From the NCBI RefSeq assembly GCF_002854065.1, contig NZ_CP024147.1: a stretch of 64,000 bases of DNA; one strand, 5' to 3'. The DNA is from Escherichia coli (GTDB taxonomy: Bacteria; Pseudomonadota; Gammaproteobacteria; Enterobacterales; Enterobacteriaceae). Numbering within the stretch: the stretch's first letter is position 1; every line of letters begins with the position of its first letter. A program made the position numbers and the translations under genes. The notes beneath the pieces were generated by a model. That model had not been told where the DNA came from. It was given only the letters and a program-made list of their open reading frames with translations, and did not search any database. Below, in pieces: positions 76 to 36,590 of this stretch.

Positions 76-148
76 GAAAGACGCGCATTTGTTATCATCA
101 TCCCTGAATTCAGAGATGAAATTTTGGCCACTCACGAGTGGCCTTTTT
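76..148 (+). ncRNA. micA: MicA (SraD) small regulatory RNA
   Basis: Sequence GAAAGACGCGCATTTGTTATCATCATCCCTGAATTCAGAGATGAAATTTTGGCCACTCACGAGTGGCCTTTTT matches the MicA sRNA as I recall it; ends in a GC hairpin plus T-run; lies just downstream of the gshA 3' end. Confidence 0.85.
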
Positions 149-3057: not shown

Positions 3058-3134
3058 TGGTGCATCCGGGAGGATTCGAACCTCCGACCGCTCGGTTCGT
3101 AGCCGAGTACTCTATCCAGCTGAGCTACGGATGC
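3058..3134 (-). tRNA. argQ: tRNA-Arg (anticodon ACG)
   Basis: Reverse complement gives GCATCCGTAGCTCAGCTGGATAGAGTACTCGGCTACGAACCGAGCGGTCGGAGGTTCGAATCCTCCCGGATGCACCA; copy name assigned by order only. Confidence 0.93.
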
Positions 3135-3236
3135 ATCGGGAAAATTTATTTTACTGCTGATATTGATATCGCTACTAAAGCCATATCAAATAAGAAAATC
3201 CATCTTAACCATCATCACTGATGATTACGGAGAATA

Positions 3237-3313
3237 TGGTGCATCCGGGAGGATTCGAACCTCCGACCGCTCGGTTCGTAGCCGAGTACTCTATCCAGCT
3301 GAGCTACGGATGC
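3237..3313 (-). tRNA. argZ: tRNA-Arg (anticodon ACG)
   Basis: Identical 77-nt tRNA-Arg sequence; copy name by order only. Confidence 0.93.
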
Positions 3314-3375
3314 ATCGGGAAATTTATTTTACTGCTGATATTGATACCGCTACTAAAGCCATATCAAGTAAGAGA

Positions 3376-3452
3376 TGGTGCATCCGGGAGGATTCGAACC
3401 TCCGACCGCTCGGTTCGTAGCCGAGTACTCTATCCAGCTGAGCTACGGATGC
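3376..3452 (-). tRNA. argY: tRNA-Arg (anticodon ACG)
   Basis: Identical 77-nt tRNA-Arg sequence; copy name by order only. Confidence 0.93.
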
Positions 3453-3535
3453 ATCGGGAAACTTACTTTACTGCAGATTTTTTGATACCGCTACTAAAGC
3501 CGTATCAAGTAAGAGATGGTGCATCCGGGAGGATT

Positions 3536-3651
3536 ACTCGCCTTGCGGCTCGCCCTTCGGGCCGTTGCTAAAGCAACGTTATCCTCCCTGGTGCCTGCGG
3601 TTAGTACCGCCACCTCTTCCATACCTTCATCGCTGAAGGTTACGGAGAATA
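3536..3651 (-). repeat. Repeat unit 2: truncated tRNA-Arg 3' end (3536-3554, 19 nt) fused to a ~97-bp hairpin-rich module, directly abutting the 3' end of the fourth tRNA-Arg
   Basis: TGGTGCATCCGGGAGGATT then divergence; same CGTTGCTAAAGCAACG / GCCCTTCGGGC module as unit 1. Confidence 0.7.
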
Positions 3652-3728
3652 TGGTGCATCCGGGAGGATTCGAACCTCCGACCGCTCGGTTCGTAGCCGA
3701 GTACTCTATCCAGCTGAGCTACGGATGC
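3652..3728 (-). tRNA. argV: tRNA-Arg (anticodon ACG)
   Basis: Identical 77-nt tRNA-Arg sequence, 3 bp from tRNA-Ser. Confidence 0.93.
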
Positions 3729-3731
3729 AAA

Positions 3732-3824
3732 TGGCGGTGAGGCGGGGATTCGAACCCCGGATGCAGCTTTTGACCGCATACTCCCTTAGCAGGGGAGCGC
3801 CTTCAGCCTCTCGGCCACCTCACC
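3732..3824 (-). tRNA. serV: tRNA-Ser (anticodon GCU)
   Basis: Reverse complement gives GGTGAGGTGGCCGAGAGGCTGAAGGCGCTCCCCTGCTAAGGGAGTATGCGGTCAAAAGCTGCATCCGGGGTTCGAATCCCCGCCTCACCGCCA with long variable arm. Confidence 0.93.
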
Positions 3825-4560: not shown

Positions 4561-7191
4561 TTATTGCAATTTCGCGCTGACCCAGCCTTTCACACTGGCT
4601 AACGCTGCAGGTAAGGCCGCAGCATCCGTACCACCGGCTTGCGCCATGTCAGGACGTCCACCCCCCTTGCCGCCCACCTGCTGAGCGACCATACCAATCA
4701 GTTCCCCTGCTTTCACACGATCTGTGACGTCCTTAGATACGCCTGCAATCAGAGAAACCTTACCTTCGGCTACCGTTGCCAGCACGATAATTGTCGACCC
4801 CAGCTGATTTTTTAAATCGTCAACCATGGTACGCAACATTTTCGGCTCAACACCGCTAAGCTCGCTAACCAACAGCTTAACACCATTAACATCAATTGCC
4901 TTACTGGAAAGATTTGCGCTCTCCTGTGCGGCAGCTTGTTCTTTAAGCTGTTGTAGTTCTTTTTCTAACTGACGCGTACGTTCCAGTACTGAGCGCACTT
5001 TATCAGCCAGATTATTGCTATCGCCTTTCAGCAGATGCGCGACTTCGCTTAAGCGATCGCTGTCTGCATGAACGGTGGCGATAGCGCCTTCTCCGGTTAC
5101 CGCTTCGATACGACGAACGCCTGCAGCAGTACCCGATTCAGAGATGATGCGGAACAGACCAATATCACCAGTGCGGCTGGCGTGAGTACCGCCACACAGC
5201 TCGGTGGAGAAATCGCCCATGCTCAGCACGCGTACGCGCTCATCATACTTCTCGCCGAACAGCGCCATCGCACCTTTCGCTTTCGCCGCTTCGAGATCCA
5301 TGATGTTGGTTTCGATCGGCAAATTGCGACGAATCTGTGCGTTCACCAGGTCTTCGACCGCACGAATCTCTTCTGGTTTCATCGCTTCGTTGTGTGAGAA
5401 GTCGAAGCGCAGCACCTTGTCGTTAACCAGTGAACCTTTCTGCGATACATGAGTACCCAGAACCTGGCGCAGCGCAGCGTGCATCAGGTGCGTTGCGGAG
5501 TGATTCAGACGAATACGGGCGCGACGAGCCTCATCAACATCAGCCTGCACCGCGTCGCCCACTTTCAGAGAACCCGCAGCAAGTTTACCGATGTGACCAA
5601 TCGCCTGGCCGTATTTCTGCGTATCTTCCACCGCAAAGGAGAAGTTAGCGCCTTTCAGTTCGCCTTTATCGCCAACCTGACCGCCGGATTCCGCATAGAA
5701 TGGCGTTTGATCCAGCACGACCACAGCTTCCTGGCCTGCATTGATGGCATCAACCGCTTTACCATCAACAAACAGCGCAGTCACTTTGCCGTTCAGTTCC
5801 AGATGGTCATAACCTTTAAATTCAGATGCACTGTCAACACGGATCATTGCGTTGTAATCGGCACCAAAGCCGCTGGCTTCGCGCGCGCGACGACGCTGCT
5901 CTTCCATTGCAGCTTCAAAACCAGCTTCGTCAACTTTGATGTTGCGCTCACGACAAACATCAGCCGTCAGGTCAACCGGGAAGCCATAGGTGTCGTACAG
6001 ACGGAAAGCAGTTTCACCATCCAGCGTATCACCAGAAAGTTTTGCCAGCTCTTCATCCAGCAACGCCAGACCGCGCTCCAGAGTACGAGCAAACTGCTCT
6101 TCTTCAGTCTTCAGCACCTGCTCAACCTGCGCCTGCTGGCGTTTCAGGTCTTCACCCGCAGAGCCCATAACGTCGATCAGCGGACCAACCAGTTTGTAGA
6201 AGAAGGTTTCTTTCGCGCCGAGCATATTACCGTGACGCACTGCGCGACGAATGATACGACGCAGTACATAACCACGGTTTTCATTGGACGGCATTACGCC
6301 ATCCGCGATCAGGAACGCACAAGAACGAATGTGGTCAGCGATTACGCGCAGCGATTTATTGCTCAGATCGGTTGCGCCAGTAACTTTCGCTACCGCCTGG
6401 ATCAACGTGCGGAACAGGTCGATGTCATAGTTAGAGTTAACGTGTTGCAGCACCGCAGCAATACGCTCCAGACCCATACCGGTATCTACAGACGGCTTCG
6501 GCAGCGGTTCCATCGTGCCATCGGCCTGGCGGTTGAACTGCATGAAGACGATGTTCCAGATCTCAATGTAGCGGTCGCCGTCTTCTTCCGGACTTCCCGG
6601 AGGGCCACCCCAAATGTGGTCGCCGTGATCGTAGAAGATTTCGGTGCACGGGCCGCACGGACCAGTGTCACCCATCTGCCAGAAGTTGTCAGATGCGTAT
6701 GGCGCACCTTTGTTATCGCCGATGCGAATAATACGTTCGCGCGGGATCCCGACTTCTTTTTCCCAGATTTCGTAGGCTTCGTCGTCGCTTTCATAGACGG
6801 TAACCCACAGACGCTCTTTCGGCAGGGCAAACCATTTTTCGCTGGTCAGCAGTTCCCATGCAAACTGAATGGCATCGTGTTTGAAATAGTCGCCGAAGCT
6901 GAAGTTGCCCAGCATTTCGAAGAAGGTATGGTGACGCGCGGTGTAACCGACGTTTTCCAGGTCGTTGTGTTTACCACCCGCACGCACGCAGCGTTGGGAA
7001 GTGGTAGCGCGGGAATAATTACGCTTGTCGAGCCCAAGGAACACATCCTTGAACTGGTTCATCCCGGCGTTGGTAAACAACAAAGTTGGGTCGTTATGGG
7101 GTACCAGGGAGCTGCTGGCAACTACCTGATGTCCCTTACTATGGAAAAAGTCGAGAAACGCCTGACGGATCTCAGCGGTGCTCTTGCTCAT
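4561..7191 (-). CDS. alaS: Alanine--tRNA ligase
   Basis: 876-aa ORF, N-terminus [24 protein letters not shown]. Confidence 0.97.
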
Positions 7192-15187: not shown

Positions 15188-16145
15188 AGCACTACTGAAC
15201 GCGGGACGTCAGACGTTAATGCTGGAGTTGCAGGAAGCAAGCCGCTTACCGGAACGTCTGGGCGATGATTTTGTTCGCGCCGCCAATATCATCCTGCACT
15301 GCGAAGGCAAAGTGGTGATTTCGGGAATTGGCAAATCGGGCCACATTGGTAAGAAAATCGCCGCAACGCTTGCCAGTACTGGCACACCGGCTTTTTTTGT
15401 CCATCCGGCAGAAGCACTGCACGGCGATCTGGGGATGATCGAAAGCCGCGATGTGATGCTGTTTATTTCTTACTCCGGTGGCGCGAAGGAACTGGATCTG
15501 ATTATTCCGCGTCTGGAAGATAAATCTATCGCGCTGCTGGCGATGACCGGCAAACCGACGTCACCGCTGGGCCTGGCGGCGAAAGCGGTGCTGGATATCT
15601 CCGTAGAACGCGAAGCCTGCCCGATGCACCTTGCGCCGACCTCCAGCACCGTCAATACCCTGATGATGGGTGACGCGCTGGCGATGGCGGTCATGCAGGC
15701 GCGCGGATTTAATGAAGAAGATTTTGCCCGCTCCCACCCAGCCGGGGCACTGGGCGCTCGCTTGCTGAATAAAGTGCATCATCTGATGCGCCGTGATGAC
15801 GCTATCCCGCAGGTAGCGTTAACCGCCAGCGTGATGGATGCGATGCTGGAACTCAGCCGCACCGGTCTGGGGCTGGTGGCGGTATGTGACGCTCAACAAC
15901 AGGTACAAGGCGTCTTTACCGACGGCGATTTACGTCGCTGGCTGGTTGGCGGCGGCGCACTCACCACGCCAGTTAATGAAGCGATGACGACAGGCGGTAC
16001 CACATTACAGGCACAAAGCCGCGCCATCGACGCCAAAGAGATCCTGATGAAGCACAAAATCACTGCCGCACCGGTGGTAGATGAAAACGGCAAACTCGTC
16101 GGCGCAATTAACCTGCAGGATTTCTATCAGGCCGGGATTATTTAA
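15180..16145 (+). CDS. gutQ: D-arabinose 5-phosphate isomerase (SIS + tandem CBS domains)
   Basis: 321-aa ORF with SIS motif [25 protein letters not shown]. Confidence 0.93.
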
Positions 16146-17656
16146 TCCTTCAATCCCAGACGTTTCGCCAGCCGATGCAGGTTGGCGACGTCGGTTTCCA
16201 GCATTCGCGCGCAGGCTGCCCAGTTGTGATGATTTTGTGCCAGTGCCTGACGAATAGTTTCACGCTGGAACGCTTCTGTCGCTTCACGCAGGTTTTGCTT
16301 AACAACGGGCACCGCCGCCGCTTCTGGCGGCGGTAACGTCACCTCAGGAAAAGCAAAATGTTGCGCCTCAAGAATCACTTCATCGCCGTTGCGGGTGGCT
16401 CTCGCCAGAACTACCGCCCGATGAATAGCATGTTCCAGTTCGCGCACGTTTCCCGGAAAACTGTAGTGTTGCAGTAAATTTCGCGCTCCGGCACTTAATA
16501 CCACGCGGGAGAGCCCCTGCCGCAAACGACACTGCTCGCAGAAATACCCCGCCAGCAGAATGACATCATCGCCCCGCTCACGCAGCGGCGGCACCGAAAG
16601 TGGAAACACGCTCAGGCGGTGGAACAAGTCAGCGCGAAATCGCCCTGCCAGCACCTCTTCGCGTAAGTCGCGGTTAGTCGCCGCCAGCACGCGCACATCG
16701 ACCCGCAAACTACGGTCATCGCCAACGCGCTGAATATCGCCATACTGCAACACCCTCAGCAGCTTGGCCTGCAATGCCAACGACAACTCGCCGATCTCAT
16801 CCAGAAACAGCGTGCCGTTATCCGCCATTTCAAACTTCCCACTGCGGTTACTGATAGCGCCAGTAAACGCTCCTTTCACATGCCCGAACAACTCACTTTC
16901 CGCCACACTTTCCGGCAGTGCGGCACAGTTGAGATAGACCAGCGGATTCACCGCCCGTGGCGAGGCCTCATGAATCGCTTTCGCCACCAGCTCCTTACCG
17001 GTTCCCGTCTCACCGCTGATCAGGACGTTGAGATCGGACGCCGCCACAATCTCAATCTCTTTTTTCAGTTGCGTCATGCCAGGGGACAAGCCAATCATCT
17101 GCGTCTGTTTCACCGCTTCAAATGGAGCGGCATCGCCCGGCAACATATTCTGGCTTTCCAGTTGCTCAATCAGCAACGCATTGCTTAACGCTCCCGCCGC
17201 CAGCGCGGCAATCAGGCGTAACTCTTCGTCGCTGAAAACATCGAACTGATCGGGCTGCATCCCGTCGAGCGTCAATGCGCCGATCAGGTTTTGCCCGGCA
17301 AACAGCGGCAGACCAACGCAGGCGTGAACCTTCAGACTCTCCTGCCCTGGAATCAAACCGTCATAGGGATCGGGCAATTCGCTGTCTGCGGGAAAGCGCA
17401 CCACATCACCCGCGCGGGCAATCGCTTCCAGCCGTGGATGACCTTCCAGCGCAAAGCGTCTACCGAGTACATCCTTCGCCAGCCCGTCGATGGCAAGCGG
17501 AATAAACTGCCGCGAGTCGTAACGTAGCAACGCAGACGCATCGCACTCCAGCACCTGACGCAGCGTGGTGATCAGGCGCTGAAAACGATCCTGATGACCA
17601 ATCCCACGCTGCAATTCGATGGCGATATTCGCCAGCACATCAACGGAAAAACTCAT
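16142..17656 (-). CDS. norR: Sigma54-dependent NO-responsive regulator NorR
   Basis: ORF with GAF domain, AAA+ motif GETGTGKE and GAFTGA, C-terminal HTH; start set at [14 protein letters not shown] (504 aa); stop overlaps gutQ stop by 4 bp (convergent). Confidence 0.95.
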
Positions 17657-17668
17657 CTTTGCCTCACT

Positions 17669-17724
17669 GTCAATTTGACTATAGATATTGTCATATCGAC
17701 CATTTGATTGATAGTCATTTTGAC
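17669..17724. promoter_or_regulatory. NorR enhancer: three GT-N7-AC sites (GTCAATTTGAC, GTCATATCGAC, GTCATTTTGAC)
   Basis: Three evenly spaced 11-bp palindromic sites in the norR-norV spacer. Confidence 0.85.
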
Positions 17725-17779
17725 TACTCACTAATGAGCATAATTTTATTTATAGAGTAAAAACAATTAGATAAAAAAC

Positions 17780-17795
17780 TGGCACGCAATCTGCA
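17780..17795 (+). promoter_or_regulatory. Sigma54 promoter of norVW (TGGCAC-N5-TGCA)
   Basis: tGGcacgcaatcTGCa about 45 bp upstream of the norV start. Confidence 0.85.
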
Positions 17796-17842
17796 ATTAG
17801 CAAGACATCTTTTTAGAACACGCTGAATAAATTGAGGTTGCT

Positions 17843-19282
17843 ATGTCTATTGTGGTGAAAAATAACATTCATTGGGTGGGTCAACGTGACTGGGAAGTGC
17901 GTGATTTTCACGGCACGGAATATAAAACGCTGCGCGGCAGCAGCTACAACAGCTACCTCATCCGCGAAGAAAAAAACGTGCTGATCGACACCGTCGACCA
18001 TAAATTCAGCCGCGAATTTGTGCAGAACCTGCGTAATGAAATCGATCTGGCGGATATCGATTACATCGTGATTAACCATGCGGAAGAGGACCACGCCGGG
18101 GCGCTGACCGAACTGATGGCACAAATTCCCGATACGCCGATCTACTGTACTGCCAACGCTATCGACTCGATAAATGGTCATCACCATCATCCGGAGTGGA
18201 ATTTTAATGTGGTGAAAACTGGCGACACGCTGGATATCGGCAACGGCAAACAGCTCATTTTTGTCGAAACACCAATGCTGCACTGGCCGGACAGCATGAT
18301 GACTTACCTGACAGGCGACGCGGTGCTGTTCAGTAACGATGCTTTCGGTCAGCACTACTGTGACGAGCATCTGTTCAACGATGAAGTGGATCAGACGGAG
18401 CTTTTCGAGCAGTGCCAGCGTTACTACGCCAATATCCTGACGCCGTTCAGCCGCCTGGTAACGCCGAAAATTACCGAGATCCTAGGCTTTAACTTACCAG
18501 TCGATATGATAGCCACTTCCCACGGCGTGGTATGGCGCGATAACCCGACGCAAATTGTCGAGCTGTACCTGAAATGGGCGGCTGATTATCAGGAAGACAG
18601 AATCACCATTTTCTACGACACCATGTCGAATAACACCCGCATGATGGCTGACGCTATCGCCCAGGGGATTGCGGAAACCGACCCACGCGTGGCGGTGAAA
18701 ATTTTCAACGTCGCCCGAAGCGATAAAAACGAAATCCTGACCAATGTCTTCCGCTCAAAAGGCGTACTGGTCGGCACTTCGACGATGAATAACGTGATGA
18801 TGCCGAAAATCGCCGGGCTGGTGGAGGAGATGACCGGATTACGCTTCCGTAACAAACGCGCCAGTGCTTTCGGCTCTCACGGCTGGAGCGGCGGTGCGGT
18901 GGATCGTCTTTCCACGCGCCTGCAGGATGCGGGTTTCGAAATGTCGCTTAGCCTGAAAGCGAAATGGCGACCAGACCAGGACGCTCTGGAGTTATGCCGT
19001 GAACACGGTCGCGAAATCGCCCGTCAGTGGGCGCTCGCGCCGCTGCCGCAGAGCACGGTGAATGCGGTAGTTAAAGAAGAAACCTCTGCCACCACGACGG
19101 CTGACCTCGGCCCACGGATGCAGTGCAGCGTCTGCCAGTGGATTTACGATCCGGCAAAAGGCGAGCCAATGCAGGACGTTGCGCCAGGAACGCCGTGGAG
19201 TGAAGTCCCGGATAACTTCCTGTGCCCGGAATGCTCCCTCGGCAAAGACGTCTTTGACGAACTGGCATCGGAGGCAAAATGA
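17843..19282 (+). CDS. norV: Anaerobic NO reductase flavorubredoxin
   Basis: 479-aa [27 protein letters not shown] with C-terminal rubredoxin CxxC pairs. Confidence 0.97.
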
Positions 19283-20412
19283 GCAACGGCATTGTGATCA
19301 TTGGTTCGGGCTTCGCCGCCCGCCAACTGGTGAAAAATATTCGCAAACAGGACGCCAGTATTCCATTAACCCTGATTGCCGCCGACAGCATGGATGAGTA
19401 CAACAAACCTGACCTCAGCCATGTTATCAGTCAGGGGCAACGTGCCGACGACCTTACCCGCCAGACGGCGGGTGAATTTGCCGAGCAGTTTAATCTGCAC
19501 CTGTTTCCGCAAACCTGGGTGACGGATATCGATGCCGAAGCCCGTGTGGTGAAAAGCCAGAATAATCAGTGGCGATACGACAAGCTAGTGCTGGCAACCG
19601 GTGCCAGCGCCTTTGTCCCGCCAGTGCCTGGGCGTGAGTTAATGCTGACGTTAAATAGTCAGCAAGAGTATCGCGCCTGTGAAACGCAACTGCGGGATGC
19701 CCGACGCGTGTTGATTGTTGGCGGTGGTTTGATTGGTAGCGAACTGGCGATGGATTTTTGTCGTGCAGGCAAAGCGGTCACGCTAATCGACAACGCTACC
19801 AGTATTCTGGCGTCGTTAATGCCACCGGAAGTAAGCAGCCGCTTGCAGCATCGGTTGACGGAGATGGGCGTTCATCTGCTGTTGAAATCTCAGTTGCAGG
19901 GGCTGGAAAAAACGGATTCTGGCATTGTGGCAACGCTGGACCGCCAGCGTAGTATCGAAGTGGATGCGGTAATTGCCGCCACCGGACTGCGCCCGGAAAC
20001 CGCCCTGGCACGACGCGCTGGGCTGACGATTAATCGCGGCGTTTGCGTCGATAGTTATCTGCAAACCAGTAATGCCGATATTTACGCGCTGGGCGATTGC
20101 GCGGAAATTAACGGTCAGGTACTGCCGTTCCTGCAGCCGATTCAACTTAGCGCGATGGTGCTGGCAAAAAATCTTCTCGGCAATAACACGCCGCTTAAAC
20201 TACCGGCGATGCTGGTGAAAATCAAAACGCCGGAATTACCGCTGCATCTGGCAGGCGAAACCCAGCGTCAGGATTTACGCTGGCAAATTAATACCGAACG
20301 CCAGGGAATGGTGGCGCGCGGCGTTGACGATGCTGACCTGCTTCGCGCCTTTGTGGTCAGTGAGGATCGGATGAAAGAGGCATTTGGATTGTTGAAAACG
20401 TTGCCGATGTAG
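19279..20412 (+). CDS. norW: NADH:flavorubredoxin oxidoreductase
   Basis: 377-aa ORF with FAD motif [10 protein letters not shown]. Confidence 0.95.
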
Positions 20413-33388: not shown

Positions 33389-35215
33389 TCAGGCTCCTCG
33401 TGAAACAATAATCACCACCAGTACCGCCAGTTCAACCAGCGCCATCCGGCGGAACAGCAACGCACTCCCCTCGCACTGCCAGCCCGGCACCAGCGACACC
33501 GGATTCAGCCATTTGCGCAGTTTCAGCACCGGCGCAAACGCCTGTTTCACCGGCATGGCAAAACCGTGAGCGGTAATCACCATTGATTTTTCGTGGTCGT
33601 AACCGCACACCCAGGCCGCACCGCGGGAACGCGATGGCAAACGATCGCCTTTGCAAATCGCCATAATGATGAATGGCAGCAGCGGGCAGGCAATCAGCAG
33701 CAACGTGATCATCGGTTGAGAAACGGTGGTGTTAGCAGGCTCCAGCGGCAGAGGTACAGCAGCAGACAGCATCGGCAGCAGCCACGGCGCAGCAACACCG
33801 CCAATTACGCAGCAAATCGCCAGTGCCACTACGCTTACGCTCATCAGGAGCGGCGCACAGGTGGCGTTTTCGGCTTCTTTGGTACGCGGCGCGCCGAGGA
33901 ACGTGACGCCATAGACTTTCGCCATACACATAACCGCCAGCGCACCGGTAATTGCCAGCCCCACAGCGAGCAGCGGCCCCAGCAGACGTGCAACAAACGC
34001 GCCACTATTGCTCAGTTTGAAAAAGGATTGATAGATAACCCATTCCCCGGCAAACCCGTTCAGCGGCGGCAGCGCAGCCATTGCCATCAACCCGACTAAC
34101 ATGGCGATGGAGATAACCGGCATTTTCTTGCCAATACCACCGAGTTTTTCGATATCGCGATGACCGGTACGGAACCAGACGCTCCCCGCCCCGAGGAACA
34201 GTACGCTTTTGAACAGGCTATGGTTAAGCAGATGGTACAGACCACCGACCAGGCCAAGAGCAATCAGCGCCGGTTGTTCGAGCGCGATACCCGTTACGCC
34301 AGCGCCCAGCCCCAGCAGGATAATGCCGATATTTTCCAGGGTGTGGTAAGCCAGTAGACGCTGGATGTTATGCTCCATCAGCGCATACAGACCACCGACG
34401 AACGCGGTGATCATACCGAGCACCAGCAGCGCGATCCCCCACCACAGCGGTGCATTACCACCCAGCAGCGACAGGGTTAAAATGCCCAGCAGGCCAATTT
34501 TCATGACTACCGTAGAAAACAACGCGGCAGCTGGCGCAGAGGCGTTCGCATGTGCCTGCGGCACCCAGCCGTGCAGCGGAATAATCCCGGCCAGCAGGCC
34601 AAAGCCAATCACACCGAGCAGCCAGATATCGGAACCGAGCGGCAGCTGTTGCATACGCATATCCAGCAGGCGCAGATCCAGCGTGCCGTAACGCTGCCAC
34701 AGCAGCCAGCAAGCAATCGCCAGCAGCAGAGTGCCAAGACGCCCCAGCGCAAACCACAGTTTGCCCTCTTTGCTGTTGTTGGTGAGGAACACCGCACACA
34801 AGGCCATGACTTCAGCCATTACCACGAACATGCCGAGGTTGCTGGCGATGACGGCGCAGACGGCGGCAGCCATCAACATATTGATCTGCAAGCCGTTGCA
34901 CTTCACCTGCGCGTGGCGATGCCAGTCAATGTTGTAGAGGCTGACAAACAGACCGCACAGACCGAGCGTAATCAGCCAAATCGCGTTAAGCGGAGAGATT
35001 TGCACATCGTAGCTTACCAGCGACAGCGCACCGCTCACGCCAACCGCGCCAGTCAGTACTGTGAAGCCCGCTGCTGCCGTATACAGACTACCAACCGCGC
35101 CGCCAATTCCGGCTATCCAGCCGCTTAGCGCCTTTTGAAAAGAAAAGAGAAATGCCAGAACAGCGGCGGCGACAAACCACGCCACGCCGCTATTGATCAG
35201 GGAAATTGCGCTCAT
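33389..35215 (-). CDS. hycC: Formate hydrogenlyase membrane subunit (NuoL-like)
   Basis: 608-aa polytopic membrane ORF. Confidence 0.93.
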   Translation of the reverse strand: MSAISLINSGVAWFVAAAVLAFLFSFQKALSGWIAGIGGAVGSLYTAAAGFTVLTGAVGVSGALSLVSYDVQISPLNAIWLITLGLCGLFVSLYNIDWHRHAQVKCNGLQINMLMAAAVCAVIASNLGMFVVMAEVMALCAVFLTNNSKEGKLWFALGRLGTLLLAIACWLLWQRYGTLDLRLLDMRMQQLPLGSDIWLLGVIGFGLLAGIIPLHGWVPQAHANASAPAAALFSTVVMKIGLLGILTLSLLGGNAPLWWGIALLVLGMITAFVGGLYALMEHNIQRLLAYHTLENIGIILLGLGAGVTGIALEQPALIALGLVGGLYHLLNHSLFKSVLFLGAGSVWFRTGHRDIEKLGGIGKKMPVISIAMLVGLMAMAALPPLNGFAGEWVIYQSFFKLSNSGAFVARLLGPLLAVGLAITGALAVMCMAKVYGVTFLGAPRTKEAENATCAPLLMSVSVVALAICCVIGGVAAPWLLPMLSAAVPLPLEPANTTVSQPMITLLLIACPLLPFIIMAICKGDRLPSRSRGAAWVCGYDHEKSMVITAHGFAMPVKQAFAPVLKLRKWLNPVSLVPGWQCEGSALLFRRMALVELAVLVVIIVSRGA

Positions 35216-35947: not shown

Positions 35948-36409
35948 TCATGCTGCCGGGCTTTGTCCCTTTACCAGTTGGCTTAAATTCACCGGCACAT
36001 TGTTTTCAATGGCGGTGTATAAGCTGTCGTAAACGCCAGCGATTTTTTCGAGATAGTGTTCCAGAACCTGTTCGCGATCGCGGATGTTGACCTTGCCATC
36101 AATCATGCCGTCAATGCTCAGTTGCGCCTGCGCAATCCGCTGTTTGTCTTCGCCATCTTTTGTTTCGACGTAATACTCGATGGTGTGGCTGTTAAAGCCA
36201 TCCGCCAGGGTGACGTAAATACGAAAATGTTCAAAAAGGACGAAACAGAGTTCTTTGTCCGGCGCGCAGCTCATGGCGTGATGCAGGCGCGCTTTCGATA
36301 ACGTGATCCCCTGAACCAGCGAATTGCAGTAGATGTGCCACTGGTCCTGTAGGCGACGATGCCGCTGTGCGATGTAATCGGCTTTCTCGCTTATTTCCCA
36401 AATAGTCAT
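35948..36409 (-). CDS. hycA: Formate hydrogenlyase regulatory protein HycA
   Basis: 153-aa ORF MTIWEISEKADYIAQRHRRLQDQ. Confidence 0.93.
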   Translation of the reverse strand: MTIWEISEKADYIAQRHRRLQDQWHIYCNSLVQGITLSKARLHHAMSCAPDKELCFVLFEHFRIYVTLADGFNSHTIEYYVETKDGEDKQRIAQAQLSIDGMIDGKVNIRDREQVLEHYLEKIAGVYDSLYTAIENNVPVNLSQLVKGQSPAA

Positions 36410-36445: not shown

Positions 36446-36461
36446 AGCATTTTTTGTGCCA
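36446..36461 (-). promoter_or_regulatory. Sigma54 promoter of the hyc operon (TGGCAC-N6-TGCT)
   Basis: Minus-strand TGGCACaaaaaaTGCT with the GG-N10-GC spacing, about 40 bp upstream of hycA. Confidence 0.75.
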
Positions 36462-36506
36462 ACTTTTAATTTATTGTTATTAAAGCGATTTTTAAGATTT
36501 TGGTGA

Positions 36507-36550: not shown

Positions 36551-36574
36551 ATTCACTGCAGGGATAATCAACAC

Positions 36575-36590
36575 TGGCACAATTATTGCT
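36575..36590 (+). promoter_or_regulatory. Sigma54 promoter of the hyp operon (TGGCAC-N5-TTGCT)
   Basis: cTGGCACaattaTTGCTt about 30 bp upstream of hypA. Confidence 0.8.

Follow-up and report, generated by a model that had tools for sequence, protein, structure and literature searches.

A textbook NorR enhancer and sigma54 promoter in the norR–norV spacer of an Escherichia coli chromosome

We analyzed a 64,000-nucleotide stretch of an E. coli chromosome (hereafter, the window) with a focus on the intergenic spacer between norR and norV. The spacer occupies positions 17657–17842 (186 bp), and its G+C content was 31.7%, versus 53.1% for the whole window. The starts of norR (17656, minus strand) and norV (17843, plus strand) were transferred from a RefSeq genome with 100% identity across positions 17500–18000, and the segment singled out by an earlier note on this DNA therefore coincides exactly with the spacer. 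Of 5426 complete E. coli genomes, 5425 contained a match to positions 17500–18000 (501 bases), and all the matches listed were annotated as norR at one end and norV at the opposite end; at least five RefSeq genomes among these carried the identical allele over the 501 bp. One complete genome lacked any spacer match and one had three copies, and one of the 5428 spacer-matching places was on a plasmid record. K-12 MG1655 and one of the identical genomes shared the gene order srl/gut genes, gutQ, norR (minus strand), norV, norW, hypF, and hydN. Compared with K-12 MG1655, the spacer differed at three bases, none of which was within the NorR boxes or the −24/−12 element described below. An Rfam scan of the window revealed no RNA family inside the norR–norV spacer; the only hits at gathering score in the window were the MicA sRNA (76–147, plus strand, 83.9 bits) and five clustered tRNA genes (3061–3824, minus strand).

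The three genes around the spacer were assigned by NCBIfam equivalog models. norR (16142–17656, minus strand) encodes the NO-sensing sigma54 enhancer-binding protein of 504 amino acids, with GAF, AAA+, and HTH domains (NF003451, 824 bits vs. a cut-off of 476; Pfam domains GAF, Sigma54_activat, and AAA_lid_14). A mechanical list of open reading frames extends norR to a GTG at 17731, whereas the annotated ATG at 17656 yields the 504-residue protein, whose alignment to the NorR equivalog model is full-length. NorR retains R75, D96, D99, C113, and D131, the five iron ligands as given in PMC4601167, along with the GAFTGA motif (262) and Walker A (215). norV (17843–19282, plus strand) is intact and encodes the flavorubredoxin NO reductase of 479 amino acids (NF003954, 1046.7 bits vs. 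711), which comprises metallo-beta-lactamase-like, flavodoxin, and rubredoxin modules in Pfam. norW (19279–20412, plus strand) encodes the NADH:flavorubredoxin reductase of 377 amino acids (NF003437, 680.5 bits vs. 392). Some EHEC lineages carry a shortened norV. In E. coli strain 107 from cattle (NZ_CP028695.1; locus L123), the CDS following a normal spacer was 1236 nt long rather than 1440 nt and bore no gene name; presumably, it resembles the shortened norV allele of some EHEC O157 lineages.

The sigma54 promoter of norVW is located at 17779–17795 on the plus strand and reads CTGGCACGCAATCTGCA, with GG at −25/−24 and GC at −13/−12 relative to the predicted start. Its −24/−12 element (TGGCACGCAATCTGCA, 17780–17795) has one mismatch to TGGCAC-N5-TTGCW. 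At this tolerance, the consensus occurred five times in the whole window against 4.1 expected and was not enriched, so we scanned the window with a matrix built from 38 sites in Table 1 of Bonocora et al. 2015 (PMC4591121), leaving norV and three other promoters within the window out of the training. Positions 17779–17795 scored 17.99 (training-site median: 15.76) and ranked second among 127,968 window positions, and the next-best position in the spacer scored 8.67. Furthermore, CTGGCACGCAATCTGCA is letter-for-letter the K-12 norV sigma54 ChIP-seq site OS25, which has a FAT of 11, is assigned to norV, and carries a flag for experimental confirmation in EcoCyc (PMC4591121). The earlier note had placed the element at 17780–17795; these coordinates were right, and the motif scan did not place it elsewhere. 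Following the convention of PMC4591121, in which +1 is 19 bp downstream of the motif centre, norVW transcription is predicted to start at 17806 (plus strand) with a 37-nt leader, and the distance from the predicted +1 to norV is likewise 37 bp in the table of that paper. A norV Shine-Dalgarno sequence (GAGG, 17834–17837, plus strand), read from the sequence, is kept in a cross-genus alignment. In vitro, the RpoN holoenzyme also gave a gSELEX peak in the norR/norV spacer (PMC8743547).

The same matrix retrieved other strong sites in the window. The promoters of hycA (36446–36462, minus strand; OS27) and hypA (36574–36590, plus strand; OS28) are known, and a hit inside hycC (33989–34005, minus strand) corresponds to the weak ChIP-seq site IS31; this last site ends in TTGCA here versus TTGCC in K-12, which is nearer the consensus. 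Another hit, GTGGCACATCTACTGCA (36325–36341, minus strand), scored 16.05, lies approximately 70 bp inside the hycA open reading frame, and is absent from the main-text tables of PMC4591121.

Upstream of the promoter, three GT-N7-AC boxes constitute the enhancer: GTCAATTTGAC (17669–17679), nearest norR; GTCATATCGAC (17690–17700), in the middle; and GTCATTTTGAC (17714–17724), nearest the promoter. Their centres are at −132, −111, and −87 from the predicted +1, and they correspond to sites 3, 2, and 1 of Tucker et al. 2010 (PMC2831303), a numbering fixed by the site-directed primers of that paper, whose mutagenic primer Site3 covers the box at 17669–17679. The 66-bp NorR123 oligonucleotide with which Tucker et al. 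2010 (PMC2831303) performed band-shift, ATPase, and EM experiments is identical to 17664–17729 (0 mismatches), and the 21-bp site-1 oligonucleotide of the same paper, GATAGTCATTTTGACTACTCA, is found in the spacer at the box at 17714–17724. The expectation that this is a tripartite NorR enhancer was thus borne out by an exact match to the fragment studied experimentally. The three sites had been described in the earlier note as evenly spaced over 17669–17724; the sites and their coordinates stand, whereas the centre-to-centre spacing is 21 and 24 bp and hence only approximately even. The A of the norR ATG is 13 bp from the start of the first box, the distance that had been estimated, with 12 nt in between that include the norR Shine-Dalgarno sequence. 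In published work, the DNA sites are needed for NorR ATPase activity, and each of the three is required in vivo for norV activation as well as for ATPase stimulation and open-complex formation (PMC2831303). In addition, the norR/norV spacer was the sole target of NorR in the K-12 genome by gSELEX (PMC8249747).

We therefore regard it as practically certain that the spacer controls the E. coli NO detoxification locus norR/norVW in both directions. NO-inducible norVW transcription dependent on NorR and RpoN is established for K-12 in published work, and comparison with this characterized promoter indicates that the spacer is the already known system itself, and not a relative of it, with a slightly different linker allele and nothing new. 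It shares with E. coli K-12 (Tucker et al. 2010, PMC2831303; Bush et al. 2010, PMC2941729; Tucker et al. 2004, cited in PMC2831303) the 186-bp spacer length, identical boxes, −24/−12 element and leader, and the flanks gutQ–norR and norVW–hypF. The differences are three linker bases and five, three, and seven amino-acid substitutions in NorR, NorV, and NorW, respectively.

The AT-rich linker between enhancer and promoter (17725–17778) is the region of reported IHF binding, which was placed between the enhancer and the start site (PMC2831303). Across 23 aligned spacers, an ATCAA-N4-TTAAAAA block directly upstream of the −24 element is conserved, whereas the remaining linker is not; this block is likely the IHF core. 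The best-conserved IHF-like core, AAACAATTAGATA (17761–17773), has two mismatches to the IHF core consensus WATCARNNNNTTR, and the alignment would place the exact IHF site there. A consensus scan allowing up to one mismatch gave no match in the linker; within the spacer, matches at this tolerance fell between boxes 2 and 1 (17694–17713).

All three differences from K-12 sit in this linker (C in place of T at 17731, A in place of G at 17737, and T in place of C at 17768), between enhancer and promoter, and 17768 is inside the conserved IHF-like core. The changes might accordingly be thought to alter IHF binding or bending and, in turn, the inducibility of norVW in this strain. We consider this improbable: position 17768 falls in the unspecified N4 of the core, which leaves the consensus match unchanged, and the same allele over 501 bp is shared with the RefSeq genomes mentioned above. 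In addition, sequence variation within E. coli is greater in the linker than in either flanking third of the spacer, suggesting that such changes are tolerated. Exact matches to the enhancer third were present in 3735 of 5423 records (approximately 69%), and 3972 of 5426 records (approximately 73%) matched the promoter/leader third exactly, but the linker third was exact in only 755 records and detectable by megablast in only 3870. In three sampled variants of the enhancer third, the changes were between or beside the boxes and none was within them.

One E. coli isolate departs from this architecture. In strain AF3 (blood culture, UK; NZ_OZ547117.1, locus L126, 2989–3129), the spacer is 141 bp long versus 186 bp, because 45 bp have been deleted, apparently between boxes 3 and 1, and a single GTCATTTTGAC box remains. 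Induction of norVW is predicted to be lost in AF3, because all three sites are reported as essential.

We investigated the distribution of the enhancer among other species by searching one genome from each of approximately 100,000 species, on both strands, for the triple-box pattern with a small gap tolerance. The scan gave at least 81 occurrences, and 80 loci were listed from it. Since the boxes were the search query, their presence at these loci is circular and proves nothing; the independent features are only norR adjacency, polarity, and TGGCAY. A NorR homologue (42–99% identity) diverged from the boxes in 48 of the 81 occurrences listed, its N-terminus lying 5–116 bp from the boxes and the gene running away from them. 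These norR-linked loci belonged to Enterobacterales, Pseudomonas, Burkholderiales, and Xanthomonadales. In every one of the 48, the short-gap side faces norR, with 9–10 bp toward norR and 13–15 bp toward the sigma54 promoter. TGGCAY was present beyond the third box in 47 of them, at 40–56 bp with one at 74 bp, and the sole norR-linked locus without it ends at the locus edge. Among the loci listed, the offset was 54–56 bp in Enterobacterales and one Cupriavidus locus, and 40–43 bp in Pseudomonas, Comamonadaceae, and their relatives. norV was downstream in 24 of the 48. Moreover, TGGCA was invariant in 23 aligned norR–norV spacers from 12 named genera, and this cross-genus alignment is in line with the comparative work of Rodionov et al. 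2005 (PMC1274295).

Other Enterobacterales (Citrobacter, Enterobacter, Kluyvera, Lelliottia, Cedecea, Moellerella, and others) resemble E. coli in having three boxes with gaps of 10 and 13 bp (9 and 13 bp in Moellerella), a norR start that mostly lies 13 bp away from the first box, TGGCAY 54–56 bp past the third box, and an IHF-like block (ATCAA-N4-TTA). Many of them, however, have TTGAT at −12 in place of CTGCA and are without the −12 GC of E. coli and Citrobacter. At ten listed loci, including those of Enterobacter, Lelliottia, Pseudescherichia, and Phytobacter (L007, L009, L016, L021, L037, L039, L045, L061, L063, and L066), the norV promoter reads TGGCACGCAACTTGATA, in which GA replaces the usual −12 GC and which is 54–56 bp after the third box; TGCA is kept in Escherichia, Citrobacter, and Kluyvera. 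The NorR regulons of Ralstonia/Cupriavidus (norAB), Pseudomonas, and Vibrio cholerae (hmp/nnrS) (PMC1274295, PMC3345576) likewise have tandem GT-N7-AC sites upstream of a sigma54 promoter and a divergent norR, but they have other target genes. In the Pseudomonas and Burkholderiales loci listed, the box gaps are 9–10 and 13–15 bp, and nearly all have an enhancer–promoter distance of 40–43 bp versus 54–56 bp, the exceptions being Cupriavidus (54 bp) and Rubrivivax (74 bp).

No norR was nearby in approximately 30 of the 81 occurrences listed, some of which are unrelated tandem repeats in GC-rich genomes. Twelve of the norR-less occurrences had TGGCAY 41–43 bp downstream, namely 10 in Pseudomonas and two loci with norV (L023 and L077). 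The Pseudomonas loci (L003, L012, L018, L020, L029, L038, L040, L046, L048, and L062), in which TGGCAY is at 41–42 bp, may be extra promoters of the NorR regulon whose regulator is encoded elsewhere. L023 ends at the locus edge. In Rouxiella aceris (L077, 13016–13071), the triple box is accompanied by a sigma54 element and norV, and no norR homologue was found within 13 kb upstream, unlike in all other enterobacterial loci.

The fixed gap polarity across orders, the two classes of enhancer–promoter distance, and the single-box deletion allele in one clinical isolate are the mildly non-obvious points of this comparison. It is conceivable, though we hold it with considerable doubt, that the enhancer is intrinsically polar, in the sense that the polarity of its gaps is required for hexamer assembly or ring orientation and does not reflect the mere inheritance of a module.

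Toward norR, the geometry of the spacer is tight. A putative norR Shine-Dalgarno sequence (CCTC, i.e., GAGG on the minus strand; 17662–17665), as read from the sequence, is separated from box 3 by 3 nt. norR transcripts must thus begin within or beyond the 56 bp that NorR occupies, and bound NorR is expected to damp norR transcription with or without NO; negative autoregulation by occlusion or roadblock would fit this arrangement. Hutchings et al. reportedly described, in 2002, approximately threefold negative autoregulation of norR in E. coli. The K-12 RefSeq product name for NorR is "dual regulator", NorR is stated to regulate both norR and norVW (PMC8249747), and the Vibrio cholerae orthologue shows NO-independent self-repression (PMC3345576). 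No sigma70-type promoter for norR was found on the minus strand at either the standard or a relaxed threshold. A single sigma70-like match on the plus strand (TTGTCA-16-GATAGT, 17688–17715) was rejected, since shuffled sequences give as many. Hence, the autoregulation anticipated in the earlier note agrees with the geometry, box 3 abutting the norR Shine-Dalgarno sequence, but the norR promoter was not located by consensus.

Given that box 3 abuts the norR ribosome-binding site, and that a natural single-box E. coli isolate (AF3) exists, the boxes could also be regarded mainly as an operator for norR repression, with norV activation needing one box only. This is very unlikely, because norV activation in vivo depends on every one of the three sites, as noted above, and three boxes with fixed polarity are kept in the 48 norR-linked loci listed.

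The individual motif is common, and the regular arrangement is not. Bare GT-N7-AC occurred at 200 sites in the window (one per 320 bp). By chance, simulated 64-kb sequences contained on average 0.11 regular triples of it, and one appeared in 2 of 20,000 simulated 186-bp pieces with the dinucleotide make-up of the spacer. The more specific GTCA-N4-GAC gave 19 strand-matches in the window versus 6.4 ± 3.1 expected, a number reached in none of 100 shuffles, and the boxes of the spacer form the only regular triple with GTCA/GAC half-sites in the window. Two further candidates were rejected. A second regular GT-N7-AC triple (5941/5966/5992) is attributed to chance: it lies in coding DNA and has neither GTCA/GAC half-sites nor a sigma54 site. 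A fourth GTCA-N4-GAC match, GTCAACGTGAC (17880–17890), is 38 bp into norV (codons 13–16) and was not accepted as a NorR site, given that its T occupies the freely varying third position of a Gly codon; in 26 other loci, this codon was GGC in 10, GGT in nine, GGG in five, and GGA in two, and the peptide GQRD was invariant. Judged by these codons, the match is a by-product of the conserved peptide.

The alternative that a degenerate motif happens to cluster at the boxes in an AT-rich spacer, leaving the sigma54 element as the only functional part, gains something from the abundance of the bare motif and the second regular triple at 5941–5992, but can be dismissed as already refuted, with a negligible residual probability, given the shared half-sites, the simulations, the exact match to footprinted and mutagenised DNA, the co-occurrence of the boxes with norR and TGGCAY in 47 other genomes among those listed, and the loss of norV activation when each site is mutated to GG-N7-CC (PMC2831303).

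On the reading that the spacer is the norR/norVW control region, the published mechanism would apply. Three NorR dimers would bind the GT-N7-AC inverted repeats at −132, −111, and −87, and the three-box DNA scaffold would drive their assembly into a hexamer. Through bending of the AT-rich linker by IHF, the linker would carry this hexamer to the sigma54-RNA polymerase, which would be waiting as a closed complex on the −24/−12 element (17779–17795). Binding of NO to the non-haem iron of the NorR GAF domain would release the AAA+ domain, whose ATP hydrolysis would remodel sigma54 and open the promoter, and norVW would then be transcribed from approximately 17806. The biochemistry of these steps comes from the literature, and we infer the mechanism of autoregulation and the exact IHF site. 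Assembly of an AAA+ hexamer from dimers on adjacent sites has parallels in TyrR on three TyrR boxes and in NtrC at glnAp2, a comparison made in PMC2831303. Unlike NorR, the TyrR hexamer represses sigma70 promoters, and in NtrC, phosphorylation rather than a DNA scaffold drives oligomerisation (PMC2831303).

Thus, as far as sequence can tell, the anaerobic NO-detoxification switch of this strain is intact in its regulator, enhancer, promoter, norV, and norW. The value of the locus is that of a positive control, in which a textbook enhancer–promoter unit was recovered from raw sequence with exact coordinates. If the enhancer were truly polar, this would add a directional rule to the model of DNA-scaffolded activation, and natural variants such as the single-box AF3 would be predicted to be NO-blind. 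An intact NO switch is, in any case, not universal in E. coli, as AF3 has lost two of the three boxes.
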